Part shown: positions 1 to 61,789 of the stretch, one piece after another
How positions within the stretch are numbered: the first letter of the stretch is position 1
How the letters are laid out: every line of letters begins with the position of its first letter
NCBI GenBank assembly: GCA_965655095.1
Contig: OZ296649.1
Coordinates: 27,156,001 to 27,220,000, forward strand
Source of the DNA: Haplodiscus bocki
Taxonomy: Eukaryota
Reading direction: 5' to 3'
Length of the DNA stretch: 64,000 nucleotides
The notes under the pieces: model-generated
What the model was told of the DNA's origin: nothing
The model's database searches: none
Seen by the model: the letters and a program-made list of their open reading frames with translations, nothing else
Made by a program: the position numbers and the translations under genes

Positions 1-345
1 CACGTTATTAATACACTGCGACTGCTTAGTTTACCATCATGAAAACTTTGACAGCTTGTCAAACATCGATATCAAGATGTCGCTCTACTTCAACTTTCGG
101 ATGAAAATTGTATGTTTGGAAAAAAATATTCTTTGCTCAAGCTAAATCAACTTCTTAGTGAACTACCTGCCATGCTTGAACGTATTCCACCCTCAGAAAT
201 TGATCGACTAGTTCGCTTCTATGAAAAATTGTTCTCTCCAAGTCCTGCAAAAAACTGATGCTCAATATGAAAACACTCGACTTCATGAAGACGTACAATA
301 GAAAATCCCTAAGGCATTGCTGCTCATTCTTAAAATACAAGGTTT
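1..345 (-). mobile_element. Degenerate non-LTR retrotransposon (CR1/L2-like) RT C-terminal remnant
   Basis: Minus-strand frames give a weak (D)LGIF-like motif near 290-320 and post-RT-like text with many stops. Confidence 0.25.
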
Positions 346-604
346 TTGAGCTGTATCCGGCTTGTCTGGTTTCCTAAACAATCGGAATAGACAATTTTAC
401 TTCGACCAGTGTAATCGACCATTCTACTTTTTTGACCATCGGAATGGACGAAACTCTAAAAAGTCATTAAAGTTTAGTCCTACTGGACTTTCGGCCGTCT
501 GGAAAAAGGCGACAAACCAGAGCAGCCGGAGAATCAATAAAACACAATAATTATCCTCGATTCATCATTTTCTCCGGGGCTTCAATATTGTTGATTAAGT
601 AATA

Positions 605-1233
605 TCATCTACAATGTTTCGTCAAGTGTAAAAGAAACATTGTTTCGAAAAAATTCAATTCTACTTCCAATAACCCAGACAGTTTGTATATGAATTGAGC
701 ACTTCTTATATGTAGATTGTTGAAAAGACGTACTTCATCAATTTCAGTGGTCCGCAAGAATTTATGATTTTTGTTCAATTTGAGGATGTTAAAGATTTTT
801 CCGACTGAATAATGCATCAAGTACAAACAATTAAAACTACAAAGATTCGAACGAATGTTTTACAACGGTAATTTGACTGTCTCAAGAAACCACCAACTTT
901 ATCTTCTGGTTAAAGCTCTAGCAATCTTCTTTGAAAGTAATCACAAAACGACAAGGTTTTTTCCCAAGCAGTTCTCCACAAAATCTCCGTAATGTTTATC
1001 GTTAATGCTGGTCGGGCACAAAAGAAGCCAGTGCTGAACTGTCGGCGAGGAATTCAATTTTTGAAACGCGGTCAACTTGCTTGCAGCACCTCCTTCATTG
1101 CGCAATTTGTGAGCAGACTTTTTGATTTTCAACCCCTCCTGCCTTCATTAAAATTGTCGGTTGAACAAACGCCCCTGAAGATGTGCAATGTAGTGCTGCA
1201 GCTTCTTGTAATTTTTGTCAGAGACTTATGCAT
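605..1233 (-). pseudogene. Maverick adenain/Ulp1-like cysteine maturation protease (frameshifted)
   Basis: MHKSLTKITRSCSTTLHIFRGVCSTDNF (FxGVxxxDxxP-like), then AFQKLNSSPTVQHWLLLC (catalytic His, NxxxxxxGxHW-like), then RS..CSFNCLYLMHY (QxxxSxxCGxYC-like Cys region); directly downstream of the MCP. Confidence 0.7.
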
Positions 1234-2549
1234 TAACCAACCAACAGGTTCTGGAAATATTCCTAGCAGAATCAATAAAAACTTGACTCACTCCTTTGTT
1301 AATGAAAAACAGCTCAATTGCGTAGTCAAGAGCTTTGGGAATGTGCAACTTTACAGTCAGGCTCTACGCGGTAAGCTCAGAAATCATTATCAAGCTGTTG
1401 CTAGATTTTCCGGTTGATCTTAGGTCGAAAATGAGGAAAGGATGGTTGTCTTGAAATTCTTCCAATTTCACTTCGTTTCCTTTTTTGGTAAACCCAAGAG
1501 CCGTAATTGTGTTGTGATAAAGCTTGACCTTGTTGCTGGTGTTGTTTGTCCGTGTAAGAGGAACGCGATTTCCACGTTGGATCTCGACCCGCTGTAGAAG
1601 CATCTTTTGGTGGGCGAACGGTTAATAGTTCAAAGGATAGTTCAAGGGTGTGCTGTGAGAAAAGGAGAGTTTACCGTACGCGAACGCAATCGTCGGGTTG
1701 ACTCCGGTAAAAACATTCTGGTTCAGAAAGGAGTTTTTCCAGCTTGATTTTCGAAACTCTTCCTGGCTCTTGATATAGGGCTAGATGGCAACACTCGCCA
1801 CCAGAGCCTTTGCCATTGACATTTTCACTCTGTAACTGCAATTTTTCTCACAGAAGGCGAAGCCCGTTCAATGACGGCTTTTACTTCTCCATCGAGCGCT
1901 TTCGACCTCATCGTCTTTTGCTTACATGCAAAGCAGGGTATTTTCATTCGATCGGAAGACGGAAGTGAAGTGTCCAGGCACGAATTGCTTCTCACGATCG
2001 AAAAGTGAGTATGCAGTGCTCCTTTCAGTTCCTCTGCACATTCATTTTCCCGGCTGAATTCAGCATATAGCTCATTCAAGGCTTTGTTGGAACCACTGGG
2101 TTCAGCCAAGTATTTTTATCTCTGGCATTTTGCCCAAGCTGCCTTAACTGTGTTATTCACTAGTTTAGTTTCCATGAAGGTTGAATGAACACAGCAGTTT
2201 GTGCTGTATTAAGTGAGCTTGCCATTGAGAATCAATTCAGCGTGTATAAAGAAAGAGTGACGCGTGGTTTTCGAAGAGACTATGTTTCGATCAATGACTT
2301 TCCACTGAGTTTTTCCATCTTCGTTTACACATTAGTTTTGACACCAAAAAATACGATTCAAATTAATCAAGTTTTCTGCTTTCGCTGACACAAAAAAGTC
2401 ATATTGTGGACCTCGGCAGCCAACATTTGGAGAAACTTGTTGATCGTAAGAGCCGCCATAGTTGATGAGAACGTTGTGTTTTTCAAAAAATGCAAAGCTT
2501 AGTGTATAAGTGGGCCTGCAATTTGCGTTGCATTTCCTGAGAACGTCAT
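1234..2549 (-). pseudogene. Maverick major capsid protein (double jelly-roll), disrupted
   Basis: N-term FFEKHNVLINYGGSYDQQVSPNVGCRGPQYDFFV; middle KAVIERASPSVRKIAVTE; C-term LYHNTITALGF..EEFQDNHPFLIFDLRST..ELTA*SLTVKLHIPKALDYAIELFFINKGVSQVFIDSARNISR; about 440 codons, typical Polinton MCP size. Confidence 0.8.
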
Positions 2550-2559
2550 CGTTCTAGCT

Positions 2560-2920
2560 AGATTGCTACTAGTTTCGCTGGTTGTTGTCGCTATGAGCAG
2601 CAGAAAAAACTGTGTTGCGGACGAAATGTCGGACCGACTTCTCTTCTCGCGCTCTGTTTGTGAAGTGTTAAATCTCTGACGATGACGATGACTTCTGCGC
2701 GTTTTCTTTGGCTAGCAATAGCTGTATTTTATGGCAAATCTATAGAGCCACCCACCATTGGGCAGCAGCTCGCACGCTGCGTGGCGCCAGCCACCTAACG
2801 GGCGGTACGCCCGGGCACCGCCCGCTGCGATGCTCCATTCGCAAATTGATTGTTGTTGTTGTCGTGTTGGTCAAGTCTTTGTTGTTGTGGTGTTGGAGAA
2901 TTTTTAAGCTCCTTGCAACG
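2560..2920 (-). pseudogene. Short Arg-rich, core (pVII-like) protein remnant between minor and major capsid genes
   Basis: GC-richer island with basic/Arg-rich frames (e.g. KRSRSDI near 2625-2650); position between the two capsid genes. Confidence 0.4.
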
Positions 2921-2924
2921 AGAA

Positions 2925-3856
2925 GGGCGGCTGTTTTGGCCTTAGTGCCAATGTGATGCTTGTGCAGTTACGTCTCAGAAATGGAATTTTTTGATTTTAT
3001 CGACCAGAGTTAGTGTAATTCCCTGGAATTGTGGTTTGTAGATACGTTCCCACTACAAATTTTGGAAACTCCGGTGATTCACTTGCTGCAAACGATGATG
3101 GTTGTGGGAGAAGGTTGGAGAGAACTCAATATCTGGAATATTTGATCGCAACAGTGCAGTTTGTATGTGACCGAGAGTCTCATTCTGAAGAAGAACGCTA
3201 TACAGAAACTTGATATGGCTCCCAGCATTCGAATGAACACTATTGACCATAACCTTTCACAGTAAAGTTTTCAGTTTGATGAGCAGCGCCCTCAGGCAGA
3301 ATTTTTTCGGCAGGTATCATTTTTCGCTCTCCATTTACTGAGTTCATATTTTTGCTTGTTCCCAGATTTTCGTTTCAATTCATGTGAGAATGTTTGAACA
3401 ACCACGCCATCAGTTCTTACGTTTCCGCTGAGTTTCACTTCAAACTCTAACGTGGCCTTGTTTACTTTCCATGAAATTGTGGGCGGATGCTCCGGAGTGG
3501 TGGTAACTCTTTGTGAGTTGGGCCTGCTGCTGAATTGCTGAGTCATCCACATTGATACTGTTCATGGTCTTTTAGCAAGGTGAAGGTCGTCTTCATCATC
3601 ACCTGCCAAACCTTCATGTGGTGGGTGGTTCGTTTTTTGAAACGGTCATATGACCCTTGGTAACATTGCGCAACCCTCGGTAACATTGCGCACCAAATCA
3701 GGCTAGTGTTTTTCCAATGAGTTTCCCTACCAATCTCATATCAGCGTCAAAAGTGTGGGAAGGAGGGTTGTGAAACACGACAACTAATTCTCGGAGAATG
3801 TTTCCGTCGACGCGTTTTTAAATCAAGTTCAGCGCAAACTCATCACTATAGACCAT
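2925..3856 (-). pseudogene. Maverick minor capsid protein (penton, single jelly-roll), disrupted
   Basis: Start MVYSDEFALNLI..NASTETFSEN*LSCFTTLLP (F.l.L.SNaS...FPeN....FTT.LP); C-term HIKFLYSVLLQNETLGHIQTALLRS (fvYcDiv.....GD....LLR), FQNL*WERIYKPQFQGITLTL, TSITLALRPK. Confidence 0.75.
3653..3692 (+). repeat. 20-bp tandem duplication (2 copies) inside the penton pseudogene
   Basis: acccttggtaacattgcgca / accctcggtaacattgcgca. Confidence 0.9.
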
Positions 3857-3857
3857 G

Positions 3858-4847
3858 TTATCGCCGAATGATGACGATTATGTATGGCACTGCTTCATTT
3901 GCGCTGTTGATGTTCTTGACTTCTGTTGCAAGTTGTGGTGGTGACCTGAATTTTACCAGCTCAAGTTCGTAAAATTTACCTTATCTTCGTTGTTGCTGTC
4001 CTTCATTTTGTACGCCATTAGTTTGTTGTAGGTATCTTTACAATCGTGAGGGTTTCCTCCTTGAATTGATTTTTATAGCCTCGATGAAAGGTCTCTTTTC
4101 TCTTCCCAACCCGGAGAATGGCGCCAACGAATTTTAGTCGGAGGTTGGTCAGTGTGGCAAAGAGAAACCGAATATCGATCGTCTTTTTGGGACACTGCAG
4201 CCAGAATCAACCTTGGGACGCGGCTGATTGTTTTTAGCGATAGCAACAAGCTCGTTGAGGAAATGAACTTATTGATTGGTGTCATGCTCATGAGGAAATT
4301 CAAAGGTTGTTGATCTCGGGTTTCTGATGTATGTCGGCGAAGGCTCGTTTTGTTTCACTCTTTGTAGAATAATGTTCATTGCATTACTCTCGACACACTT
4401 TTGCAAATTCGCCTGTAAATTGCTCTCTTGATTGGCCCATTTTTTCCGGCGGAATCCGCTTGGAAGCGCAATTTCTAAGAGCATGACTTTCCTTCTTACT
4501 ACTCGCGATTTTCCTTTCGAGAGCACCACCGCAAGCTTTGAGGTTTTTTATCTGCTATCCACAGTCCATGAAGAGCAGAGAGTGTTTACTGCCACATAAG
4601 AAAGTCGAATACCTTATTTGTGTTTTGAATTTTGCGGCATGACAGCTAAATCAATGGACCAAATTTCGTTCAGTCGATAAATAAACTTTCAGTCTGGGAA
4701 AAGGCTTTCGGGTCATTGTGAATTTTGTCTAACTCTCACTCCTTTTCAAGAAAAATTCAAATTGCTTGGAGGACCACTTGATTGTTTTTTTCAGAGAATT
4801 CCAACTACCTCAAGCAGTTTTTGGTTATGGGTTCGTTTAAGTCTCAT
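3858..4847 (-). pseudogene. Maverick retroviral-like (rve) integrase, disrupted
   Basis: TRKPFPRLKV..YRLNEIWSIDLAVM (W..DL.dm), YVAVNTL (VavD.fS); C-term KETFHRGYK..ETLTIVKIPT..KFYELELVKF (F.kGY...ft.E.F....g.FYe.EL). Confidence 0.8.
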
Positions 4848-5075
4848 GGATTTTGCTGAAATCAAATGAGATGGGGTCATCTTTGGCGATGAAAACTCGA
4901 TTTCCTTAACGCTTCAGGAAGAGATTGTTGTGGGTCCAATCTTTCTTGTTTTTCATAGCTGAACTTTTGAAGAAAATCCATCCACATACATGACCACACC
5001 GATAGACACAACGAATTGGGCGCCGTTGCCCAACGGATTTTGACTTGATTCACAAAACCACTTCTTCGCTGCCAT
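4830..5075 (-). pseudogene. Small Cys/His-containing ORF of the Maverick, unknown function
   Basis: CVYRCGHVCGWIFFKSSAMKNKKDWTHNNLFLK; same strand, overlaps the INT start. Confidence 0.35.
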
Positions 5076-5147
5076 TTTGCTAATCTTCTAGATAGTTAGC
5101 TCATCGTTGGCAGATTTCGTGTCAAGTTTCATTTGTTTCGTAGGTGG

Positions 5148-5775
5148 CTATCCCGACGCCGATCGATTATGATTCTCAGAACTTGTTAGTCTCGCGTGTG
5201 TATTTGCTAGCAGAAAGTGATGCAGTTGAAGCACTGCAACCAAGTTAACAATTTGTTTCCGTGGTTGTTTGGTATTCACTTGTAACGCTGTCAAAACTTC
5301 TGTTCCAGCTATGAAAGTAAGTTGTTGGCCCAGAAACGTTTTTGGATTATTCTCAGTACTAGCACGCTCTTCTTGCTGGGTCGCTTTCAAGATTGGACGA
5401 GACCGTTCAAGTTTAACGCCAGTTTTTCTTGACTAGTGGAAAGTCTAGATTGCGATTGGATGCGATGAAATTTTATCTTGCAATAAAATAGATTGCAACT
5501 GTGGTTTTTTTGTTCCCGTAACCTTGAGTTAAAGTTGATCTGTCGGACTACTGCTCCTTGTTTGGAAGAGTTTTCTTCTTGGTCTCTTTATCAATCGATA
5601 CATGCGGAAGTCTTGCAGCTGTTAACGCGGGAATTTGAGCGAGGAGTCGTTTTTCTTTCTCGTTGGAGTCTAGATAGTTTTTTTGATATTGTTAGTGTTG
5701 CTGCTGTTTTAGAAAACAGTTTTCATTATTAGTTAGACGAATAAACTCTAACGCAGCAGTTTGTTATCATGGCGA
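5148..5775 (-). pseudogene. Maverick accessory ORF remnant (unknown), cut by the copia insertion
   Basis: Co-oriented coding-like frames (..KQPRKQIVNLVAVLQLHHFLLANTHAR..) between INT and the copia TSD. Confidence 0.35.
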
Positions 5776-5873
5776 TGAAAAAAGATACCTATATAAAACG
5801 TCTATTACACCAACCCCCCTGAAACAACACTTACAATTATCAATTAGCACCTGTCAAAGTGATTGGATTAACA
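5776..5873 (-). repeat. 3' LTR of copia copy A (98 bp)
   Basis: Direct repeat of 10284-10382 (about 11 differences by eye); purine-rich tract just upstream on the element strand (5874-5898). Confidence 0.95.
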
Positions 5874-6214
5874 TTCGTATCTTTTCAATTTCGACTCCTA
5901 ATTATGGAATCAATATTTAGAGGTCGGTACAGATCGAATAGACTAACGGTAATGAGTTCGCCGGTCTGTAGCATCGATTAGACTGCTGTGAAAACATGGG
6001 CGTGGCAATTTAATGAATACATTACCAGAAACGAATGTTCGGCGATATATGTTTGGCGTGCGTGAGCGAGCAGGATGTAGCGTAGCTTTTGGAAGTATAA
6101 TGAATACATTAACAGAAGCACCATGATAAATCGAATGCACAAGGATTGTGCGTATGGTTTATTCAGCAAAATTAAACATCAAATTTACAAAAAACACTTC
6201 AATAAAAGCGTAAA

Positions 6215-9200
6215 TTAATTACGAATGAAGATAGCGGAAAAACTGTTAGTTTGTGGGACTCTACGCAGCAAATCAGACGAAGGACTTCTCGATTTCGTGA
6301 GGCAATCAGCCACCTGCCTTTTCGTTTCTACCCTTTTTAAACCAGATAAACGTCCGTTTGACAGCATACTTCGCAAGAAACCAATATCGACTTTGGCAGA
6401 TTTATCCGAAATCGAATTGTTGGAATAGGCTGATTTTATAATAGATCTTTTATCCCTGTAGCACACGATAGGTATCTCGATCCCTGATATATCTAGCGGT
6501 ATATTTCTGCAAAATTCAACGGTTTCAAGGTATTCAACTAATGAAAAGCATTCTGCAGCCTAAGTACTGCGTGCAACACGTCGTAATTTTGAACTTTTCC
6601 CAGCTAAAACGGCAGATTTGTTTGTATTCGTTTCTGAATTGAAAGTAATGAATCCAGCGTGGGTAGAACCGTCAGAATAATTGTTGAATGATGCGTCAGA
6701 GAAGCAAGCGAGCTCTGTTTTCGTTAATTGAAAATTCGGATATCGCAGGGTAATCGGTGGCCCTGAATTCACATGCCGGACCGTTTTGTTTGCCAACAGG
6801 GCTACAGAAACAGTCGCCGTTGTGTGTTTCTGAGAGGTCATTTCGGAAAGTTTGCGCCAGATATCGGGCCTGGCCTGTTTCGCCGGCCATAATAACGTTC
6901 CAATTATGCCACTTAGTGCATAAACTTTTTCTCCACTCAGATTTCGCTCCTTGTTTGATGTGTCAGCGAATAGCATCTCCTGAAGACCAGCGCGATAACA
7001 ATCCATATCTAAGCATAAAGCAGATCCAGAGTTGGGCAAATTCACAACCAAACCAAGATACTTGTGAGGAATTTCGATAATCGATCCAAGCGTGAAAACG
7101 GTTTGAATTTTCTCAATAACATCTTTGACGAACGAGTCGTGTCCAGCAATCCAGAAATCGTCCACGTGCGTCAAAATAACACCAGGTAAGTCATTTCTCG
7201 TGTTGGAAAAAATGCTTGGGTCGTATTTAGATTGTGTTAAACCAAAAATGTTGAATTCTGCAATAACTCTCTCGTGCCATAATCTTGAAGCATCAAACAG
7301 TCCGTATACGCATTTTCGTAGCTTCCACAGGTTTGAATTTTTGTACGGTTTTGGTGGCTCTAGGTAGACGTTTCGCTTCAACAGGAAACCTTTTAAAAAC
7401 GCCGTTTTTACGTCAAAAGCACTGCAACGCCAGCTTTCATGTGAGGCTACGATTGTGAGAACTGCGCGAAATCCTTCTTTCGAACACGTTGGCGAGTGCT
7501 TGACCACATTACTGTACTCCGCAACCTCAAATCCTCGAGCAACGAGCCTGGCCTTTTTTGACCAGATTCTTTTGTAGTATAGACCCATCGTGTTGTAATT
7601 CTTGGTTGACCAACATCTTCAACGATATCAAAAAAGCTTCAAGTTTTTCCAGCTCTTCAGTTCTGCTTCACCAGCGTCTGCAAACTCATCCGCAACACTC
7701 ATTGTGGCCAAAGTTGACTCCGACAACGCATTTTTGTCGTTTCTCCGGTTGAGATCTCCTGGTGTGAAGTTTACACACTCGTTGGCATAAGTCGGGTCGT
7801 CATACTGGACGTTATAGTGGAATTTCTATTTCCCTTTGGCCTTACCAGCTCTACTAATGATTTCGGCGCCAAATTCCTCGCCATTAGCACTCAGACTTTT
7901 CACTCGATCTTCGCGTTTTGGCTTCCTAGAACTGGTGAGAGGCTCCAGGGAAGGCTACCTCGGGTTTAGTTTCACCTGAGAAGTCGTAACAGCCTCAACT
8001 TCTGACATTTTCTGCACATCCTGTTCCCCTGTGTCCGTAGTTGACGAGTCATCCAAATCGTCTACCGGAATTGGATTCAGTGGTAATGGGGCTTCTTGGG
8101 ACGTATTTCCTGTGGTAACTAATTTCGAATCTGCTAAATTAGAAACTCCTCTGTCGTTGTGACAATGACGCTGCTTGCTTTCATGCACTTTAAGGACGTG
8201 ACTTCCATTTCTAACAAAGACCACCGAGGACTCGCTGCAAAGCCTTGAGATGGTCAGGAAATGAGCCTCCGGACTCTCCAAAGCGGGCAACTTGTCGTCT
8301 ACCACACATGGCCGTATACTAGCTGGAAAGGAGAGTAGCCCAAATGAGACAAGAGACAGTTTTTGGCAAACACCGTAGCTTTAACATATAGCTCATCATC
8401 GGAAGATTTCAAGTCAGATTTCACTTTTTGGCATGTCTCCGTCCAAATCCTATTATGCGTTTCACAACATCCATTTGATAAGGGGTTTTTATTAGCCGTC
8501 GAAGACACTTTAATATTGAAAAATTCAGCCTTCTGTCTGAACGCTTCACTGTAAAACTACACTCCATTGTCCGTAAGAATCTTCTTTGGGGCATGATGCG
8601 CGACAATCCACTATCGACTCAATACATCAATAATTGTAGAAGACATTTTGTTCGAGATCATCTCAGCCTCTGAAAACCTGGTGTACATATCAATAATATG
8701 AACATACCATTGGGGTGGATTACTCGAGATTTGAAAGAGATCCAATTATATGGTTTCGTTGAAAGATTTTGAGTGGGGCATTGACACGATCGGTTTCCTA
8801 CTGGGCTGGCCAAACTTTTCGCATACTTGACACGGATTCTTAATTTTTTCTAGGTTCATTTTCCAGTTTTCTAGTTTCCCTGCACTTCTTAGCAGCCCTC
8901 CTAGACGTTCTGGACGACAGTGTCCAAACTGACGATGAAGTTTCATTAGAGACGTCTCGTTGAGAACTTCCGCTGTAATAATTTGTAGCGAATCTGTAGG
9001 AGAATTTCGCGGAAAAATCACTACAGCAAAGTGACCACTAGCCAGTTCTTCTAGATCAATCGTTGCAGATTCGGGAATTATCATCGTGTGCTTGTATGCA
9101 TCAATCATTGCACGCGTTTTCTTCAGCGATTTAACGCTCAAGAGCAGTGGAAGATTACCCGGAGTAAGTTCAACATTCAAATAACAGTTCAAGTCGCCAA

Positions 9201-10284
9201 AACACGTGGGAATACTGACTCTCTGCAGATACTTGGACATTGCACCTCCTCCAAACATAATCTTCGCCCCAGTTTCGTGTTTTTGAACCAGCTGTCTCTG
9301 TTCATCTGTTAGAGCAGACACGCATTTTTTTATCCAGTTATGGTCGAACACCGTTGTGGTACATGCGGTGTCTACAATAGCCTTCCCAAATGTGTTCGCA
9401 AGGACAGACGGAGCCAATTTGACAAAACTAAGAAAAGCGTCTTGTGTATTTTCGCTTGGCCTATCAGGGCAGTCTCGAGCGCAATGGTTTCTACTTCCGC
9501 AAATTCGGCATGTAGTGACATAGCCTTGGTTATCTTTCGATTTTTTTCCTTCAGATTTGAATTTCTTGCCATGATTAGAATCACCTCTTTGAGCGTAATG
9601 ATTTTGGATTCTCTTGCGGGAAAAACTCAGTCTATACTTCTGAATGCGCCCATAGAATGCTTCTCCAGATGAGGACTCTTCATCAGAGTTTTTGGCATCT
9701 AGGGTCTTGAAAATGGGTTCTTCCTTGACATCTGCAGCAGTCTGTGCTAGCGTGTCGCAAGAAATGCGCTTGAGCGTTCCTCTCATTTCTGACAATTTCA
9801 GAGTTTTTGTGGTTGCCAAAACCATCTGACGTTCAGATGTCCGTAGACAAGCCCCATGTAACAACTTACGTGCTCAAACAGAATCTGGTAGCTTCCTTTC
9901 CAGCTTTTCAGTTTTCTAGTAAGCAATTTCAAATTCCAAAATATAGTCAGCAATAGATGAAGTAGGTTGCCTTTTCAGTTCTTCAAACCTCACGTATGCC
10001 TCATACGCACTGTCAACCGTGTCTTTAGCAAATTACTCTTGTAGCTTGGCAAGTAGCCTCGTAACGCCATCTTCATGGTTCAGACCACCAATCGGAACCT
10101 GCTTGGCAACCTCTCGTTTCCTGCCTTGCAGTGTCAACACTATAATTGGTGCACGTTTTTTGACTTGAATATCAGTATTAACGAGCCACATTTCAATTTC
10201 GGCTTTCCAGCTCTCGAAGCTCCTGTTATCGGACCAAATAGGCGGGGTTTTGTTCGGAAGTGTAACAGACATTTCTGCTACCAT
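6215..10284 (-). pseudogene. copia A gag-pol, broken by stops and frameshifts
   Basis: ORF pieces 10033-10284 (gag), 8746-9864 (ZnK/PR/HHCC), 8299-8508 and 7955-8305 (INT), 6560-7588 (RT/RH), 6215-6466 (RH end). Confidence 0.9.
10274..10283 (-). promoter_or_regulatory. Primer-binding site TGGTAGCAGA (initiator tRNA-Met 3' end), copia A
   Basis: Immediately follows the LTR-terminal CA on the element strand; identical in copy B (51757-51766). Confidence 0.85.
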
Positions 10285-10382
10285 GAAAAAAGATACGTAC
10301 ATAAAACGTCTATTACACAAACCCCGCTGAATCAACACAAACAATTAATAAATTAGCTCCCGTCAAAGTGATTGGATTAACA
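10284..10382 (-). repeat. 5' LTR of copia copy A (99 bp)
   Basis: TGTTAATCCAATCAC...TTTTTTCA, then the PBS. Confidence 0.95.
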
Positions 10383-10685
10383 GGCGACATCTCAAATAAT
10401 TCGAAACCGATGATAGGAGTACCCTCAGCAGTCGCAGCCCTCTGGGTGAAAAAAGTAACTGACGTTTACCTCTCACAGAAACTTTTCAGTTTGCAAAGAG
10501 CAACCCCAGAGTGCATTTTCCCTTCATGATGTTGCCTTTTTATTTCGCCTTTTTGTCAAATTTGATGACGCTTCCGTTAGTCATATTGAAGATGCAGTCA
10601 CAAAAAATATCTTATCTGTTTCTTCTGAGAATTTTGGAATGAAATTTTTTTCATTAATGTGGGGAATTTCATAAACAAACTTACT

Positions 10686-11370
10686 CTATAAAAGTTTGTA
10701 AATTCTCGATCTATGTTTAGGGTGCAATTGATCTGTTGCACGATAGAAAATAAGTTGTTCGTCACCTGAGCAGTTTGAAAAGTCTCTCAGTGCGTTGCTG
10801 CTTGGCACATCTAGATCAACCATCAAGTGCCCTAAAGGCTTCTGTGGGTCTTGTATATGCTTCTTCTGTGAGTTGACGCTCGCCCAATTGCAGGCGCAGA
10901 ACTCCATTTTGTTCTAAGTGTCTCGGGCTGGTAAAAAAAGTAACTCTGACATTCGTTTCATTCTTTCTGAAATTTTTCGTCCTTTGAAATATTTGTGTTG
11001 CGAAACCATCAAATGTTTTTTGAGATGTTGACCGGCATTGACCAGTGCTAGAAAGTTTGCTTCCTGAAGCTTCTGCGAAAAGTCGTCGATCACCTAAAGG
11101 GTTCGCTTCCTCATTTTCTGCCTTGTCCAATGCATTCCAATATAAATCTTGAACAAATTCATTTTTAACTTGTATTTTTAATATTCGTTCAAAACTTTCC
11201 TATAGTGAGGCTGGTATTGTTTATAAAAATGTCAAGTTTTGTCTAAGTGAGGTGAGAAAATGTTCCTCCGGCTGAAAATCATCCGACCATTTTGTCTTGT
11301 CTTCCCTGAGCCTGCGGGTGCCGTAACTCGAACGAAGCAATATGGTTAAATACTTATTCGCTCGTTTATT
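10686..11370 (-). pseudogene. Maverick A32/FtsK-like packaging ATPase, disrupted
   Basis: Walker A APAGSGKT (about 11298-11324), HFYKQYQPHY, Walker B KRTL*VIDD, AGQH (GRH-like), SPRHLEQ..LGERQL..AY, KPLGHLMVDL. Confidence 0.85.
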
Positions 11371-11699
11371 ATTTTATGGCCGGTAAATTTTGACCCAGGC
11401 AAGTTGAAAGTAATTCGAGAACACCAGAAGCAAATCTGCACTCTCCCCCACACAGTGTATGGAAGTTTGTGCAAAAAAATTACTAGATTCAGAGTGATTG
11501 TATATATTAAATCCAAAAATGAAGTGTATCTAGTCCAGCGTGCACGACGGGGAAGAAAGTGAATTGGAATGGCGGACTCCTCTGATTTGTATCGTCGAAA
11601 TTTATTCGGCTTAGTTACGCTGCGGAAAGTGCTACGTCAGCTTAATCTGATTATCGTTGTTGATCCAATTGATAGTCACTAAGGTATCGCCTCCAAGAA

Positions 11700-13300
11700 T
11701 TCGTGTCCCTGCCAGACATGTTTACCAATATGACCAAGTAGGATTATGACGCTGAAGCGGCTGATTTTGGAAGCTAAACAAATTGGAATGGTCAGAATGG
11801 AAAATTTTTTAAAAAGTTCCGACGTTGAAATTTCAACGACTTTTCGGAATAACCGGAAAGGTTTTTGAAATGGCTTCCAGTCATCGTTGCACGAATGTAG
11901 GCCGATCCCTTGTCACAGGCACATCCCTTACCATTGACCCATTTTAGTCAAGTAACCATAGGCGTCATGAAAGATTGCATTCATGCCGAAAATTTCGAAC
12001 GGCCTAAAGTTTAATGGAAGCGACTCTGACCCGCTCCAACTCTCCCTCCGGATGGTGCTTGGAATTTCACTTCGGGTGAACCAGTAGTTTCGTCTATACA
12101 GAAACAGACGGAGAGGAAGATGTTTTTTCTGTTGTATCATTCTTTGCTTACCAATAGGTAGTTTTTACAAAGTTTTCACAGTTATCCTTCGAAGAAATTA
12201 TTTGGAAGCTCAAAACTTAAATTTCTCCCGAGCAAGTAGCATCTGACCTCCAACGAAACTTTTGAAGAAATGAATTATCCACAAAAACTGTCTAAGAACG
12301 TTGTCTCTTCGTCGTAAGCAGCTTTGAAGTATAGAGGCTGTTCCCTTCAGATGTTGCCTCCCAATGTTGAAATGGCTGATTCATGCAGTCGGAACACCTG
12401 AATTGTGCTTCGCTCACAGTTAGATCGATATCCAACGTGCAACTGTGTTCTGACAGCAGGATTCGCGCAAATCTTTTCTGTAAAAAAACATGGTTTCGTT
12501 GGAAGACGCGTCTGATTTTTCCAGTTCCAAAAACCGCTGGGAGACGTACAATGCTTTGTCTTTGTCATTTCATGTTCCCAGTGATTTCTGCTTTTGGAAC
12601 TCCCAAATGGTAATGAATTGGCAACTGAAAGGGTCTGATCTTTTCTGACTTCTAAGAGATTGCATCTTTCCCTCAGCTTTCTTAAATTCTCTGGATATGA
12701 AGCTCTCAAAACTTTAACTTGACCATTCTTTATGTTTGACAAAAGCTGAGAGACTGTTTTCTTCAACAGACTTTCTGCTTGTTTGTTTTTAGGATGTAAA
12801 TCAGTACGTGATGATTCGATGGCAGTGTGTGACACGTGTTGCAAACTGCGGTGTTTTCTTTGCTTTCCCATTTTTGTCTGCTGATATACTGAGCTGAGTT
12901 TTTTCAAAAGACACCTGATTGTAAAAATCGGAAAGTGTCAGGCATGTCTTTGCACAGTCTGTGAAGAGGTTTTTTTCTCTTGTGTTGTGATTCAATCTGT
13001 GTTGATTAAATTCAGCCAATTAGCTATGCGGTGCTTTTTTTGAAGACAGTGGTTATTTGTGTTCGTCGTGGAAGAGTGACTATGGGATTTCGAACCTAAT
13101 TTTTCGGAAATTTTGACTCTGTTTCTAGGAGTTTAAATTTGTTGAATGTTTATCTTTGACTATATCGAAAGATAGAGTTTTCCAGGGTTTCGTCGGAATT
13201 TTCCTGCTTGACCGCCAAGTGTGCTGGGCATACAACATATATGCTGCCACGCGAATTGTAATAATCTTTGATAATGATATCATCAATTTTCACTATGAAG
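11700..13300 (-). mobile_element. Probable heavily decayed LINE (ORF1/endonuclease-like) remnant
   Basis: Long coding-like minus frames (12347-12907); YDEETTFLDSF..DNSFLQ resembles the AP-endonuclease segment after GDFN; no unambiguous catalytic motif. Confidence 0.25.
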
Positions 13301-13699
13301 TGTCATGTTGGATCCATACTTTGCAAGAATTCAGGTTTAATCAGTGAACCGATTAACCGGCTAAAAGTTATTTTGATTCAAAAAGTGGTCAAAACATTGA
13401 AAAGCATTTATTGTTTTGATCACTTGATAGACCTTTTTACATGAGATTCATTTCGGAGAACTATTTTTTTCCTTGGTTTTCCTTTTTTTTGATGAATTTT
13501 TTTTCATAGTTCGATCAGACTTTTCGACTTGTTTTTCTGCTGTCTGACTTGATTGTGTCAATCTAATTTCGATAACATAGTCTATCAGCTCTAGAACTCA
13601 TACAATAAGAGAGAACGAAGCCATCTGTAACATATGGAAAGTTCTTCCTTCTAACTATGATAATTATACTTATGTTCGTGGTTTTAGGGTACAAATTAG

Positions 13700-16400
13700 T
13701 TAGAGAGAGAGAGAGAAAGGCTTTAATTATTGTTGTTAGACATACAAAGATAGTAGAAGGTAGAAAAGAAATTAAAAGAAAAAATAGGGTTGAGGTTTTA
13801 AGAAGTTCTCGAACCTAATTTTGAACACTTTTGGTTCGGAAAAAAGTATTATGTCTGTATTTTTATGGAGTTTTTTGCAGCTACACAGGAGCAAATCAAG
13901 AAACACTCATTAGTTTTGGTTTTTAAAGTTCTGCGAACGTTAAAGAAAACATCGGTTGCACGACGCAGGCCTTCTCTTTTTTGTATTGACAGCCTAATGT
14001 CGTTTAAAATTGGGAAGTCACAGTTTCCTGCTAATATACTTTTCGGCAAGCAAAGATCTTTGTAGACGAACAGATTTTTCATGTGAAGCAGGTTGAAACG
14101 CTGAAGACCTTCATCGTAGGTTGGAGTTGAGCTGATCTATGTCAGAACACGTTTTTGAAATATCTCTAATTTGTTAACAGCATCTTTGCTGGTTGACCAC
14201 ACTTCAGAACCATATGTGAGTGAGGAGAGTATGTCTGTTTTATAGTCGCTTTTGTTGACGGGTTGAGTGACACAGGGAGACATCTCCGGAAGCTGATAAA
14301 TGTGGAGTAGGCGATTTTTAGTAAATTTTTGACAGGATGGTTTCATTTGAGATTATTGCTAATCGTTATTCCGAGATCTTTCACTTTGTCAACTGGGTTA
14401 ATGGACGATTTCATCAAACGGAGTGTGTTGGAGCACTTCTTGTTATGATCGATGACTATGACATGGGTTTTGTCAAGATTAAAAGGCATTTTGTTGTCTC
14501 TTTCCCATTCAAGGCATTTGTCTATTTGGATGGTCCATTTGGTTATTGCTTAGCTGCGCTCGCAACGTTTTAATTGACCGGGGGGTGAAATTTTCGGCAG
14601 CCGAAAGTTTTCCGCTGGCGGGTTTCGGACGAAAATTAATTGCAAACCCAGATTTTTTCAGAGGGCAGGTGTAATTTTTTCACAATTCTTTGACCAAATA
14701 TCCCATATATGGCATCCCAATACTGGTTAGGCGTTGGAATATGAAGCCTTAGTTGTATTCAGTCTTTAGCCGATAACTCTGATTTTTCAGTTTTTTTTGA
14801 CCGAAAAGGTTTGAAAAATAAATTGAATTGAACGAGAGTTTGAGCAGTGTGTTTAGCAATGAGTTTTAATGCAAATTTCGACTGTGAGTGATTTTTTTTT
14901 CATTTTATCCTTGCCGAAAATTGTGAAGAAATAGGTTTCCGTAACCTTTATCGACTCTTCCAAAAACTTTTTATCCGGTTGCACAAACCATAAAAGTGAT
15001 CTGGGCTTCTTGATGCTCACTGGATTGTCTGGAGAAGCAGTTGAGAGCATTTCAGTTTACGCTCGGTTTTAGATAGGTGGTTCAGCCAAGGTACTTTTAG
15101 CATGTGGATCAGTTTTTTCCAAGTTTTTGCCCTTTGCGATAATTTACTACGACTCCTATCACTTTGAAATTTGCCTCCAGCGGTGTCTATTATTTTTTTT
15201 CAGCCTCTCCTGAGTGCCCATGTGACTTCGAGGTTACGGCAAAATTCGTCTAGTTGAGAACATTTATTGAGAAAACACGGCTATTTGGGAAGATTTTTGT
15301 TTCCCCATTCGTTGTTCTTTAATTAACACCAAGTTGTCAACCTCGTTGCTTTTGTTCAAGTTTTGGAACCTCTTTGCTCTGAGACAAAATTTGTTTAACA
15401 GCAGCTGGCTTCCTTTTACGTTTGAGATGACAGTTTTTTTCTCAGCTAATTTTCGTTTGAATTTGGGATAGTTAACTTGCACCTCCGCTGTTATCTCATG
15501 CTTATTTTCTGCTTAATCTCCCCAGACTTCGCTACTTGATCTCTGGCAATGCATAGGCATCTGGTCAGAGTTGTAGTCAAGAGGTTGAGTACATTCGCGA
15601 GCCTTAGGCTAAGCACCTTATCGTGTACTTTTTAAGTTTGGCTTTTTCTATCTCCTGTTCTTCACGTGAAAGTGCTCTGACTATCAGTATTTGGTTGGTC
15701 TCGAATAGCTTGTTCTCTTTTGCCTTGCTTTGGCATAATATGGCATCCCAAACTGAGTTGAAAATAACAAGGATGGGTCGCTTTTAATATTCGGCAAACT
15801 TGCACCGTAGCATACAGTCGGATGATTAGGCAGTCTGTAATCCAATATCTGCAAGAATTTTATCAACTGCTTCTTTATCATTTAGTTTTTGGTTCAAATT
15901 ATACTTTTCCGAACTTTCAGCTGCGCCCATAAACTTCAATTGTGTTTTGTGTTTGTGGTCATCCGCGGGGTTCTTTGAGGTTGTTGATACAGTTTCTGGG
16001 CATTTTTTGGTGGACATTCTCCAGTTTCACGTTCATTTTTTCTTCAAAAGTCTTGATTGATTGCTTGATTTCGTTCAGCAGTTCATTTTTCAAGACATCA
16101 AAGGAATGAACATCTGTTTTTGTCTCCTAGATAAGTTGCACTAGTTGATCTTCTGCAGCTGTGACTACATTGTCTACATCTGTATCACACTTCCAAAAGA
16201 GACCTTTCATCTCACCTAAGGCAGCGGAAACATTTGTAGGTAGATTAGTACATTCTTGGTTTGACCATTTTCCGCAGTCAGAGCATTGTACACAGTTGCT
16301 TTTGCATTCGGCTTTGCAAGCCCCACAGTGAAACTTTGTCGGTTTTTTGCCCACGGGCATTGGGAGTGATCGTGTGTATATGATGAAACTATTGGGCTAA
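13700..16400 (-). mobile_element. Degenerate CR1/L2-type LINE with PHD-finger ORF1, internal deletions and an unrelated insert at about 14572-14830
   Basis: PHD-like ORF1 (16127-16360) plus coiled coil; RT tail LEWERDNKMPFNLDKT..VKDLGITISNNLK*; LTYGSEVWS..KLEIFQKRV; 3' end at an (AG)n tract 13702-13716. Confidence 0.65.
16127..16360 (-). pseudogene. PHD-finger N-terminus of LINE ORF1
   Basis: CGACKAECKSNCVQCSDCGKWSNQECT..FWKC: C4(H)C3 spacing with His degenerate. Confidence 0.65.
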
Positions 16401-35471: not shown

Positions 35472-35709
35472 ATTGCAGGAATTGGAGAGAATGTTCAGCA
35501 AGAAGTTCATCCAAGGAGGAGAGAAGGCTAATAACAGTGGACTGCAAGAAAAGAGAGCACGGAGGAAGAAGCATGCAGAGGAGACAAGACGCAAAGCTCT
35601 TCGGGAAGCAGCCGAGAGTGAAAACATGGATACTGTCGTGCAAGTCTATGACAACGTTATGAACGAAATACAAGACAAAGTCAAAATGGAGGAGGGACTG
35701 CGCAAAAAG
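35472..35709 (+). CDS. KIF17: Kinesin-2 (KIF17/OSM-3-like) coiled-coil exon
   Basis: tttttcag acceptor, gtttga donor; LQELERMFSKKFIQGGEKANNSGLQEKRARRKKHAEE..VVQVYDNVMNEI, resembling KIF17 VGGEQAKNKDLKEKHKRRKRYADE..LNVYDSIQEEV. Confidence 0.92.
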
Positions 35710-35757
35710 GTTTGAAAAACTGTCTTCTCTTATTTATTAGGCATGAAGCGTGAGCTT

Positions 35758-46134: not shown

Positions 46135-46233
46135 TGAAAAAACATACGTATATAAAACGTTTATTACACAAACCCCCCTGAAGCAACACATACAATTAAT
46201 CAATTAGCACCTGTCAGAGTGAGTGGATTAACA
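46135..46233 (-). repeat. 3' LTR of copia B (99 bp; CCA(C)TCA and AATAAA on the element strand)
   Basis: Direct repeat of 51767-51865. Confidence 0.95.
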
Positions 46234-49200
46234 CTCGTATTTTTTCAATTTTGACTCCTAAATATGGAATCAATTTAGAGGTCGATACAGAACGAATAGA
46301 CCAACGGTAATGAGTTCGCCGGTCTGTAGCATCGATTAGAGTTCTGTGAAAACATAGGCGTGGCATTTTAATGAATACTTTACCAGAAACGAATGTTCGG
46401 CGATATATGTTCGCCGTGCGTGAGCGGGCAGGATATAGCGTAGCTTTTGGAAATATAATGAATACATTAACAGAAGCATCATGATAAATCGAATGCACAA
46501 GGATTGTGCGCATGGTGTATTCAGCAAAATTAAACATCAAATTTACAAAAAACACTTCAATAAAAGCGTAAATTAATTACGAATGAAGATAGCGGAAAGG
46601 CTGTTAGTTTGTAGGACTGTAGGCAGCAAATCAGACAGGACTGCTCGATTTCGTGAGGCAATCAGCAACCTGCCTTTTCGTTTCTATCCATTTTAAACCA
46701 GATAAACATCCGTTTGAAAGCATATTTCGCAAGAAACCAATATCGACTCTGAGATTCATCCGAAATCGAATTGTTGGAATAGGCTGATTCTACAATAGAT
46801 CTTTTATCCGTGTAGCACACGATAGATATCTCGATCCCTGATATTTCTTGCAGTATATTTCTGCAAAATTCAACGGTTTCCAGGTATTCAACTAATGAAA
46901 AGCATTCTGCAGCCTAAGTACTGCGTGCAACACGTCGTAATTTTGAACTTTTCCCAGCTAAAACGGCAGATTTGTTTGTATTCGTTTCTGAATTGAAAAT
47001 AATGAATCCAGCGTGAGTATAACCGTCAAAATTATTGTTGAATGATGCGTCAGAGAAACAAACGAGCTCAGTTTTCGATAATTGATCAAAATTCGGATGT
47101 CGCAGGGTAGTCGGTGGCCCTGAATTCACATGGCGAACCAGTTTGTTTGCCGACAGGGCTACAGAAACAGTCGCCTTGTGTGTTAGAGAGGCCACTTCGG
47201 AAAGTTTGTGGCAGATATCGGGCCTGGATTGTTTCGCCGACCATAACGTTCCAATTATGCCACTTAGTGCAGTAACTTCTTCTCCACTCAGATTTCGCTG
47301 CTTGTTTGATGTGTCAGCGATTAGCATCTCCTGAAGACCAGCGCGATAAGAATCCCTATCTAAGCATAAACCAGATCCAGAGTTGGGCAAATTCACAACC
47401 AAACCAAGATATTTCTGAGGAATTTCGATAATCGATCCAAGCGTGAAAACGGTTTGAATTTTCTCAATAACATCTTTGACGAACGAGTCGTGTCCACCAA
47501 TCCAGAAATCGTCCACGTGCGTCAAAATAACGCCAGGTAAGTCATTTCTCGTGTTAAAAAAATGCATGGGTCGTATTTAGATTGTGATAAACCAAAATTG
47601 TTGAATTCTGCAATAACTCTCTCGTGCCATAATCTTGAAGCATCATTCAGTCCGTATACACATTTTCGTAGCTTCCACAGGTTTGACTTTTTGTACGGTT
47701 TTGGTGGCTCTAGGTAGACGTATCGCTTTAACGCGAAACCTTGTAAAAACGCCGTTTTTACGTCAACAGCACTGCAACGCCAGCTTTCATGTGAGGCTAC
47801 GATTGTGAGAACTGCGCGCAATCCTTCTTTCGAATTTGTTGGCGAGTGTTTAACCACTGTATTGTACTCCGCGGCCTCAAATCCTCGAGCAACAATCCTG
47901 GCCTTTTTTGACCAGAATGTTTTGTAGTATAGACCCATCGTGTTGTAATTCTTGGTTGACCAACGTCTTCAACGATATCAAAAAAGCTTCAAGTTTTTCC
48001 AGCTCTTCAGTTCTGCTTCACCAGCGTCTGCAAACTCATCCGCAACACTCATTGTGGCCAAAGTTGACTCCGACAACGCATTTTCGTCGTATCTCCGGTT
48101 GAGATCTCCTGGTGTGAAGTTAACACACTCGTTGGCATAAGTCGGGTCGTCATACTGGACGTTATAGTGGAATTTGTTTTTCCCATCGGCCTAACCAGCT
48201 CTACTAATGATTTCAGCGCCAAATTCCTCGCCAGTAGAACTCAGAATTTTCACTCGATCTCTGCGTTTTGGCTTCCTAGAACTGGTAAGAGGCGCCAGGG
48301 AAGGCTGTACCTCGGGTTTAGTTTCACCTGAGAAGTCCTAACAGCCTCAACTTCTGACATATTCTGCACATCCTGTTCCCCTGTGTCCGTAGTTGACGAG
48401 TCATCCAAATCGTCAACCGGAATTGGATTCAGTGGTGATGGTGCTTCTTGGGACGTATTTCCTGTGGTAACTAATTTCGAGTCTGCTAAATTAGAAACTC
48501 CTCTGTCGTTGTGACGATGACGCTGCTTGCTTTCATGCACTTTAAGGACGTGACTTCCATTTCTAACAAAGACCACCGAGGACTCGCTGCAAAGCCTTGA
48601 GATTGTCAGGAAGTGAGCCTCCGGACTCTCCAAAGCGGGCAACTTGTCGTCTACCACACATGGCCGTATACTAGCTGGAAAGGAGAGTAGCCCAAATGAG
48701 ACGCGACAGTTTTTGGCAAACGCGGCAGCTTGAATACATTGCTCATCATCGGAAGATTTCAAGTCAGATTTCACCTTTTGGAATGTCTCCGTCAAAATCA
48801 TATTATGCTTTTGACAACATCCATTTGAGAAGGGGCTGTTAGCAGCCGTCCAATACACTTTAATGTTGAAAAATTCAGCATTTTGTCTGAACAATTCACT
48901 GTCAAACTCCCCTCCCTTGTCCGTAAGAATCTTCTTTGGGGCAGCATGCGCGAAAATCCACTTTCGATTCAATACACCAATAACTGTAGAAGACATTTTG
49001 TTCGAGATCATTCAGCGTCGGAAAACCTGGTGTAGATATCAATAATATGAACATACCAATTGGGTGGATTACTCGTAATTTGGTGGAGATCCAATGATTT
49101 GGTTTCGTTGAAAGATTCGGAGTGGGGCAGTGACACGATCGGTTTTCTACTGGGCTGGTCAAACTTTTCGCATACTTGACACGCGTTCACAATTTTTTCT

Positions 49201-51766
49201 GTGTCGCTCATTTTCCAGTTTCCTAGTTTCCTTGCACTTCTTACCAGCCCTCCTAGACGTTCTGGACGACAGTGTCCCAACTGACGATGAAGTTTCATTA
49301 GAGACTTCTCGTTGAGAACTTCTGCTGTAATCAGTTGTAGCGAATCTGTAGGAGAATTCCGCGGAAAACTCTCTACAGCAAAGTGACCACTAGCTGGTTC
49401 TTCTAGATAAATCGGAGCAGATTCCGGAATTATCATCATGTGCTTGTCGACATCAATGATTTCACGCGTTTTCTTCAGCAAGTCGCGCAACAGTTCTTCA
49501 GCAACAGTTCAAGTCGCCAAAACAGGTTGGAATACTGACTCTCTGCAGAGACTTGGACATTGTACCTCCTCCAAACATAATCTTCGCCCCAGTTTCGTGT
49601 TTTTGAACCAGCTGTCTCTGTTCATCTGTTAGAGAAGACACGTAATTGTTTATCCAGTTATGGCCGTACAGCGTTGTGGTACATGCGGTGTCTACAATAG
49701 CCTTCCCAAATGTGTTCGCAAGGACAGACGGAGCCAAACTGGCAACACTAAGAAAAGCGTCTTGTGTATTTTCGCCTGGCCTATCTGGGCAGTCTCGAGC
49801 CCAGCGGTTTCTACTTCCGCAATATCGGTATGTAGTGACTTGCCCTTGGTTATCTTTTGGGTTTTCTCATATAGCTCATCATCGGAAGATTTCAAGTCAG
49901 ATTTCACTTTTTGGCATGTCTACGTCAAAATCCTATTATGCGTTTCACAACCTCCATTTGATAAGGGGTTTTGATTAGCCGTCGAAGACACTTTAATATT
50001 GAAAAATTCAGCCTTCTCTCTGAACGCTTCACTGTAAAACTACCCTCCATTGTCCGTAAGAATCTTCTTTGGGGCATGATGCGCGAAAATCCACTTTCGA
50101 CTCAATACATCACTAATTGTAGAAGACATTTTGTTCGAGATCTTCTCAGCCTCTGAAAACCTGGTGTACATATCAATAATATGAACATACCATTGGGGTG
50201 GATTACTCGAGTTTTGAAAGAGATCCAATTATATGGTTTCGTTGAAAGATTCGGAGTGGGGCAATGACACGATCGGTTTCCTACTGGGCTGGCCAAACTT
50301 TTCGCATACTTGACACGGATTCTTAATTTTTTCTAGGTTCATTTTCCAGTTTTCTAGTTTCCCTGCTCTTCTTAGCAGCCCTCCTAGACGTTCTGGACGA
50401 CAGTGTCCAAACTGACGATGAAGTTTCATTAGAGACGTCTCGTTGAGAACTTCCGCTGTAATATTTTTGTTGCGAATCTGTAGGAGAATTTCGCGGAAAA
50501 ATCTCTACAGCAAAGTGACCACTAGGCAGTTCTTCTAGATCAATCGTTGCAGATTCGGGAATTTTCATCATGTGCTTGTGGACATCAATCATTGCACGCG
50601 TTTTCTTCAGCGATTTAACGCTCAAGAGCAGTGGAAGATTACCCGGAGTAAGTTCAACATTCAAATAACAGTTCAAGTCGCCAAAGCAGGTGGGAATACT
50701 GACTCTCTGCAGAGACTTGGACATTGCACCTCCTCCAAACATAATCTTCGCCCCAGTTTCGTGTTTTTGAACCAGCTGTCTCTGTTCATCTGTTAGAGCA
50801 GAAACGCATTTTGTTATCCAATTACGGTCGCACACCGTTGTGGTACATGCGGTGTCTACAATAGCCTTCCCAAATGTGTTCGCAAGGACAGACGGAGCCA
50901 ATTTGACAAAACTAAGAAAAGCGTCTTGTGTATTTTCGCTTGGCCTATGAGGGCAGTCTCGAGCGCAATGGTTTCTACTTTCGCAAATTCGGCATGTAGT
51001 GACATAGCCTTGGTTATCTTTCGATTTTTTTCCTTCAGATTTGAACTTCTTGCCATGATTAGAATCACCTCTTTGAGCGTAATGATTTTGGAACCTCTTG
51101 CGGGAAAAACTCAGTCTATACTTCTGAATGCGCCCATAGAATGCTTCTCCAGATGAGGACTCTTCATCGGAGTTTTTGGCATCCAGGGTCTTGAAAATGG
51201 TTCTTCCTTGACATCTGCAGCAGTCTGTGCTAGCGCGTCGCAAAATATCCGTTTGAGCGTTCCTCTCATGTCTGACACTTTCAGAGTTTTTGTGGTTGCC
51301 AAAACCATCTGACGTTCAGATGTCTGCAAACAAGCCCCATGTAACAACTTACATGCTTGAACAGAATCTGATAGCTTCATTTCCAGCTTTTCAATTTTCT
51401 GGTAAGCAGTTTCAGATTCCAAAATATAGTCAGCATTAGATGAAGCAGGTTGCCTTTTCGGTTCTTCAAACTTCACGTATGCCTCATACGCACTGTCAAC
51501 GGTGTCTTTAGCAAAATACTCTTCTAGCTTTGCAAATAGCCTCGTAACGCCATCCTCATGGTTCAGATCACCAATCGGAATCTGCTTGGCAACCTCTCGC
51601 TTCCTGCATTGCAGTGTCAACATAATAGTTGGCGCACGTTTTTTGACTTGAATGTCAGTGATAACGAGCCACATTTCATTTTCGGCTTTCCAGCTCTCGG
51701 CGCTCTTGTCATCGGACCATATTGGCTGGTTTTTTTTCGAAATTGTAACTGACATTTCTGCTACCA

Positions 51767-51865
51767 TGAAAAATGATACATATATAAAACGCCTATCACA
51801 GAAACCCCCCTGAAACCACACATACAATTAATCAATTAGCACCTGTCAAAGTGATTGGATTAACA
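51767..51865 (-). repeat. 5' LTR of copia B (99 bp)
   Basis: TG..CA, followed by the PBS. Confidence 0.95.
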
Positions 51866-61527: not shown

Positions 61528-61789
61528 GTGCAAGCGGCTGAGGTTGAGATCCGAGACCTGCAGAGCGAGTTTGAGAACGAGAGGCGCGACTATCTGGAGA
61601 CGATTCGGAGTCAGGCCAAGCAGATGCAGTTGGTGGAGGCTATTTTGGAGAAGATGCAGCCGCTCATTCAGAGAGACTGCAACTATTTTAATTTGCGCAA
61701 AATCAAGGAAGATGCCAAATTTGACATTGACTCTTCTTGTTGGAAACTACCTGACATCCAGATGACCAAAACTAACTTGCCCAGTCTTG
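61528..61789 (+). CDS. KIF17: Kinesin-2 (KIF17/OSM-3-like) tail exon
   Basis: ttgtag acceptor, gtaggt donor; VQAAEVEIRDLQSEFENERRDYLETIR..QPLIQRDCNYFNLRKIK..WKLP..TKTNLP, close to KIF17 LRAAEVEIKDLQSEFQLEKIDYLATIR..QPLIRRDCNYSNLEKI..WKIP..TKTSLP; phase 0 matches exon 35472-35709. Confidence 0.95.

Follow-up and report, generated by a model that had tools for sequence, protein, structure and literature searches.

The locus and its genes

We analyzed a 64,000-nucleotide stretch of the Haplodiscus bocki genome (assembly GCA_965655095.1, contig OZ296649.1, positions 27,156,001 to 27,220,000; hereafter the window) and find on its minus strand a decayed, virus-like derivative of a Polinton, which appears to lie antisense between exons of a kinesin-2 gene. 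Homology to sister copies extends from about position 13231 down to 115 bp left of the window edge, and at this right terminus (AGTAGT, G000:C2:27155886) the alignment of the flank with sister copies ends. About 8.7 kb of the element is left when a copia insert is subtracted; its terminal repeat is of type A, and the left terminal repeat and outer ~520 bp were not found in the window. The features are as follows, with best tblastn E values to open frames of sister Polintons.

1..63, minus: right terminal inverted repeat, inner part, type A (~178 bp in total, the outer 115 bp lying left of the window up to AGTAGT at G000:C2:27155886)
64..720, minus: right arm, from repeat to protease; shorter than a PolB gene would be, without a match to PolB
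731..1215, minus: cysteine protease pseudogene, putatively adenain/Ulp1-like (2e-14)
1238..2553, minus: major capsid protein (MCP) pseudogene, predicted double jelly-roll (3e-55; spans residues 30-458/464 of the folded sister)
2560..2940, minus: basic core-like open reading frame (ORF) remnant, placed by position only; DNA match to sisters
3005..3846, minus: penton (minor capsid) pseudogene (7e-12; sister fold)
3950..5060, minus: rve integrase pseudogene (5e-28; sister rve 9.3e-10)
5091..5770, minus: ORF4 pseudogene, conserved, no assigned function (3e-30 at 5091-5420)
5776..10382, minus: Ty1/copia long terminal repeat (LTR) retrotransposon, later insert (LTRs 5776-5874 and 10284-10382; target duplication 5771-5775 and 10383-10387)
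10388..10611, minus: small ORF remnant after the ATPase (5e-5)
10689..11447, minus: A32-like packaging ATPase pseudogene (9e-43; Pox_A32 over cut-off in 3/3 sisters)
11949..12228, minus: ORF2 pseudogene, no assigned function (3e-15)
12346..12897, minus: ORF1 pseudogene, no assigned function (3e-21)
12898..13231, minus: left limit of sister homology (DNA alignment to sister copies)
35472..35710, plus: presumed stalk exon of the host kinesin-2 gene (next exon near 61530)

A fossil Polinton with a virion module had been proposed here from the letters alone (the original prediction), and it is real: the gene order is right and the motifs are present on the minus strand (APAGSGKT at 11321, VIDD at 11093, EIWSIDL at 4667, FYELEL at 3974, FTTLLP at 3774, LLRS at 3154, IFDLRST at 1432 and HWLLLC at 1033). 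Overlooked at that point were two genes upstream of the ATPase (11949-12897), the right terminus and the absence of PolB, the DNA polymerase of Polintons. The window gene fragments carry 3 to 12 stops in one to three frames each, and 8/9 of the genes match sister open frames by tblastn. The basic ORF has no such match, and ~470 bp found in sisters are missing at ~2935. Pfam searches on 12/12 single-frame read-throughs of the window's Polinton parts gave no Polinton family, so the profile matches anticipated by the original prediction hold for Pox_A32 and rve (PF00665, 39.1 bits, over cut-off) in the sisters and not for the window's own reading frames. The protease of 1/2 sisters reaches Peptidase_C48 at 7.7e-4 and C5 at 0.051, both under cut-off.

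Folds were predicted for a sister family that has PolB, from its natural open frames. The MCP model (predicted local distance difference test, pLDDT, 84.5) matches double-jelly-roll capsids, with E ~1e-15 and TM 0.55-0.60 to those of PBCV-1, an iridovirus and Sputnik, and a PDB sequence search with the same protein returned nothing under E 0.75. The penton model (pLDDT 79.7) matches mavirus penton at Z 12.8 (root mean square deviation 7.5, 238 residues aligned); mavirus, Sputnik, PBCV-1 and adenovirus entries span Z 11.9-13.7, and the next unrelated row stands at Z 5.2. On these models, the capsid of the window family is predicted to be a double jelly-roll MCP and its minor capsid protein a single jelly-roll penton, both folds being those of the sister frames. 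Together with the tblastn matches and the Pfam results of the sisters, this bears out the virion module and the Polinton origin. ORF1 and ORF2 are common to PolB-bearing families, and sister ORF1 gave no usable Pfam or ESM Atlas match. A small plus-strand ORF in the right arm (52-258) has 10 other matches, every one with internal stops, and we find no coding evidence for it. The integrases at L033:4439-5662 and L027:4387-5592 start with a Cys/His-rich region that looks PHD-finger-like by eye and to which Pfam gives no PHD match.

A family without DNA polymerase

The window copy belongs to an old family of about 8.3 kb without DNA polymerase, whereas other Polinton families in the genome have PolB. 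With tblastn we observe no PolB match in the window or in the 20 kb to its left, while the same probes detect PolB in 16/16 control loci. The element is not a complete Polinton, and because PolB was tested and is absent, this fossil, real and by itself ordinary, is not to be filed as an autonomous Polinton. The picture of a lone hidden virus is not supported either: the genome holds 2318 MCP candidates, of which all 150 that were scored matched (22/150 in open frames of at least 455 aa).

Among 96 ten-kilobase stretches, 28 loci carry the right arm together with a protease or MCP match, and PolB lies between arm and protease/MCP in none of them (0/28). The gap is below 1 kb in 25/28 loci, and the PolB frame in this genome is 1283 aa long. 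Further virion or integrase genes are present at 23 of these loci; three are hairpin derivatives and two hold the protease tail only. In all, we count at least 24 family insertions with virion or integrase genes, and no cargo. In the complete families, PolB follows the protease on the opposite strand in elements of 13-18 kb, whereas in the PolB-less family the terminus directly follows the protease (~840 bp apart in the window copy). The flanks outside the terminus are mutually unrelated among copies, pointing to many independent insertions. When copies were picked by MCP similarity, 16 were family-like, 12 of them with the arm and without PolB and four with neither (8-10 kb fetched), two of these four not being placed in the MCP tree described below.

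Sister copies have a ~178-bp terminal inverted repeat with (AGT)2 ends at both sides, of which the window copy keeps the right one only. Two-ended copies span 6.4-11.4 kb, with 8.3 kb in two, and 5/9 keep 5-6 of the 6 bp of a target duplication. PolB being absent, the family has neither the Alpha nor the Beta OTU-PolB of Adintoviridae. PolB matches near family ends at L103 and L104 were rejected as family members, being outside the terminus or 8 kb away and belonging to another, more distant family.

Several neighboring or derived structures were seen. More distant Polinton families occur at L103:1503-5033, L104:2124-8570 and L041, and an inverted PolB-piece duplication lies 0.9 kb outside a PolB-less copy. 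A third family (L069, L070, L071 and L117; e.g., L069:2416-7388) consists of 5-7 kb hairpin elements, each end of which carries the right arm and protease tail of the PolB-less family; their inverted arms measure 0.9-2.4 kb, and their common ~1.4-kb center has no Polinton gene match. L046:1303-2301, 1 kb long, retains nothing but the two ends and matches at 5/6 positions of its target duplication, and L020-L023 (G000:C6:2.10-2.13 Mb) hold at least six near-identical MCP matches a few kilobases apart, a tandem array of partial Polintons.

Two waves of copies and probable selection between them

In a DNA tree of the MCP gene (35 rows, midpoint root only, rows with <700 bp of MCP left out), a 100/100 branch separates the 18 PolB-less rows from 17 PolB-bearing ones. 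The PolB-less side is near star-like and adjoins one PolB-bearing clade. Nested within it at 97/93 lie three rows with shorter branches, which we call wave B, as opposed to wave A. Distances among copies are flat by codon position (A-A 0.40/0.39/0.40 for positions 1/2/3), the pattern expected when copies decay neutrally once inserted, while the net divergence of the PolB-less copies from the PolB-bearing sister (0.21/0.15/0.66) falls mostly at third positions.

Across six genes, the net divergence of A from B amounts to 0.009/0.004/0.036, with 0.012/0.009/0.053 for the MCP alone and 0.009/0.004/0.039 for MCP, protease and ATPase combined. None of 1000 random pseudo-splits of A reaches the A-B value, either for the six genes or for the combined three, and the third-position excess persists with any single B copy removed. 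A seven-gene version gives 0.010/0.006/0.036, with a bootstrap interval of the excess of 0.016-0.042. In the non-coding right arm, net A-B divergence is 0.032 (positions 90-500), near the third-position value, and it rises to 0.105 in the stretch adjoining the protease, beside a gap with poor alignment. Since A-B divergence sits at third positions, we infer that the genes, capsid included, were under selection, and thus functional, in the interval from one wave to the other. A single loss of PolB is the condition under which that selection can be placed in the PolB-less state.

Termini probably captured from another family

The left arms of wave B match a different family, H, over their first ~243 nt and then switch to A sequence. 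Identity to the two best H copies is 83-85% for 2/3 B copies and 76% for the third, and 70-77% to a more decayed H copy; the right ends of B are H-like over ~55 nt. Family H has both PolB and MCP, and the MCP tree places it at a great distance from the PolB-less clade. One B copy retains both ends with a 6/6 target duplication. Type-A ends have only 70-80 nt in common with PolB-bearing families.

At L110:607-9180, a family-H remnant, bounded by a perfect 6-bp duplication, interrupts a PolB-less copy within its left arm. We considered this remnant as a complementary, capsid-less partner and rejected it, as it belongs to family H and has suffered deletions, the MCP being present in the other copies of that family. 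The family-H copies L124 and L126, on one chromosome, have the same 6-bp left flank, from either target preference or segmental duplication.

Later insertions and the host gene

The "six abutting genes" of the original prediction are in fact split by a 4.6-kb Ty1/copia element (5776-10382) with 99-bp LTRs, TG..CA ends, a 5-bp target duplication, and rve (1e-8) and RVT_2 (2e-17) domains, the integrase preceding the reverse transcriptase; sister Polinton copies run uninterrupted across the site. It is an ordinary member of its group, with no difference noted. Its LTRs differ at 10/98 sites, and the tip of the window Polinton copy in the tree is 0.19, so copia came later. DNA contigs of run X1 span both junctions and those of sample X4 span at least the one at 10296, so that the insert is no assembly artifact, X1 and X4 being from one study that may itself be the source of the assembly. 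A second copy of the same copia family lies at 46135-51865, also within the kinesin gene and oriented alike; ~1.1 kb is duplicated inside it, and its LTRs differ at 11/99 sites. Next to the lost left end, the 3' part of a repeat that looks like a long interspersed nuclear element by eye (13560-14600) shows high contig depth and no Pfam match.

The kinesin motor exons (C2:27124408-27140535, plus strand) best match OSM-3, and the gene is an OSM-3-like kinesin-2. Motor and neck exons (the latter at ~27141727) lie 14-32 kb left of the window, and exons that we take to be stalk exons, from KIF17 motifs, lie on the same strand to the right of the element, at 35472 and near 61530. Hence the element, judged from these exon matches, sits antisense between kinesin-2 exons, in agreement with the suggestion that it lay inside this gene. 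Elsewhere in G000, five kinesin motor domains stand in single open frames of 835-1716 aa, i.e., intronless, and others have very large introns.

Interpretation and alternative explanations

In our preferred explanation, to which we give a probability of roughly two in three, this locus holds the dead remains of a ~8.3-kb PolB-less Polinton derivative with integrase, packaging ATPase, protease and predicted capsid genes, and complete Polintons of the same genome likely supplied the polymerase that copied the family in trans. Judged by its gene loss, by selection and by end capture, the best reading appears to be a helper-dependent satellite Polinton that changed its helper by capturing new ends. 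PolB would have been lost once, before waves A and B. Terminal repeats serve as origins for protein-primed PolB, and those of the family may have been used in this way by the PolB of a helper; such a role of terminal repeats is also suggested for polinton-like viruses (PLVs) in the accessible text of PMC11296320. The family's own integrase would have inserted the copies, and its own virion genes would have packaged them and for that reason stayed under selection. Recombination with family H may then have given wave B new ends and, with them, a new or better-matched helper. The window copy would have integrated antisense in the kinesin-2 intron and accumulated ~0.19 changes per site; it would also have been deprived of its left end and received the copia insert. 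The fullest form of this account, a PolB-less satellite polintovirus with its own particles and its own integration, parasitic on the polymerase of unrelated Polintons and switching helpers through captured termini, we put forward tentatively, at slightly under even odds.

A number of points weigh against this interpretation. Trans-replication and particles are predictions from sequence, and the folded sister family is only ~35-42% identical to the window fragments. Many loci were chosen by the arm itself, which biases the count toward the PolB-less layout, and the genome searches score the best 40 DNA candidates only. The ATPase signal alone is weak (0.003/0.001/0.011), each gene estimate uses 3-4 B copies only, and the remaining 4/9 two-ended copies score 3, 3, 1 and 0 of 6 for the target duplication (automatic end pick). 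Among PolB-bearing elements, none turned up with complete type-A ends, the best match covering ~70-80 nt at 71-77%. Wave B also misses ~150-180 nt of the A arm beside the protease, which leaves room for two separate, nested PolB deletions from an unsampled parent.

This last point belongs to a rival account that we regard as unlikely, in which PolB was deleted twice, once for A and once for B, from a complete parent of which no copy can be detected; selection would have acted on that parent, and the virion genes would have been cargo in non-autonomous copies. It fits the lack of a codon-position signal among copies within each wave and the difference between B and A arms next to the protease, and in Pieris polB-lacking elements are described beside highly similar complete ones (available text of 10.1101/2025.02.07.637071). 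Such a parent would, however, be younger than wave A and so rank high in the MCP and arm searches, and no PolB-bearing locus with this arm or in this MCP clade appears among the 96 ten-kilobase stretches; A and B moreover have a ~500-nt arm in common, whose net divergence equals the third-position level. Replication without a Polinton helper, by polymerases of the host, by a co-infecting large DNA virus or through an unrecognized replication function of ORF1, is less probable still. PLVs are reported to use other replication modules or helper viruses (PMC11296320, in its accessible part), but ORF1 and ORF2 are also found in PolB-bearing families, so nothing replaces PolB, and a Polinton helper accounts for why ends were captured from a family with PolB. 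The poxvirus-type start motif TAAATG occurs at 0/23 ORF starts in two PolB-bearing sister elements. As for the view of the original prediction, which takes the element for a normal, complete Polinton with its PolB either beyond the window or missing from the window copy alone, most animal Polinton copies are degraded (PMC8097293) and complete families abound in this genome; yet ~840 bp separate the terminus from the protease, and a further 28 loci, their flanks unrelated, show this same junction, which makes this view very hard to sustain.

A fossil Polinton by itself is ordinary; the family behind it is unusual, the missing polymerase being its unusual feature. If the satellite interpretation holds, a virion module is able to go on evolving as a unit in elements that have no replication module, there is indirect evidence that animal Polintons spread as particles, and the question of how polB-lacking Polintons move has an answer. 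The genome would then be a dated record of two waves, of capsid and protease selection between them, and of termini from a distant PolB-bearing family. Surveys that demand PolB to call a Polinton would overlook such families.

Comparison with known systems

Non-autonomous Polintons are present in Repbase, and the family described here acts like one that kept its virion module. With Polintons/Mavericks (polintoviruses; the adintoviruses of PMC8502044) it has in common the rve integrase, A32-type ATPase, predicted double jelly-roll MCP and penton, and a putative protease, as well as the (AGT)2 termini (a motif given in PMC8097293) and, in 5/9 two-ended copies, all or nearly all of a 6-bp target duplication, and its gene order is that of the PolB-bearing families in this genome. 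It differs in the absence of the protein-primed PolB (pPolB), which defines the group (PMC8502044), and in length, ~8.3 kb versus 13-18 kb for complete elements in the same genome and below the 13-25 kb given for autonomous Polintons in the accessible part of 10.1101/2023.08.22.554363.

The loss of PolB has precedent. The polB-lacking polinton-related insertions of Pieris mannii and other insects likewise have Polinton genes and terminal repeats and were amplified without polB; in the available text of that study (10.1101/2025.02.07.637071) they comprise two elements and one group, are tied to LINE or LTR cargo and stand beside highly similar complete elements, and their mobilization is left as an open question. 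The present family, in contrast, has at least 24 insertions, no cargo, two waves with selection between them, and ends from a distant family. This study was the single report of polB-lacking, capsid-bearing polintons that the literature search returned. For selection between waves or end capture in polB-lacking, capsid-bearing Polintons, we found no report in the open literature (paper supplements outside the search), so that these two features are without precedent in the literature searched. A system in which helicase and recombinase stand in place of PolB and rve has, as here, kept its virion module and had its termini replaced; the present family differs in that it gains no replication gene and keeps rve, only the ends changing. 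Finally, Tlr elements and PLVs without pPolB have capsid, penton and ATPase in common with the family, and Tlr also rve, but they encode a helicase or a helicase-polymerase fusion (accessible text of PMC4028283 and PMC5499653), of which none is detected or would fit in the family described here.

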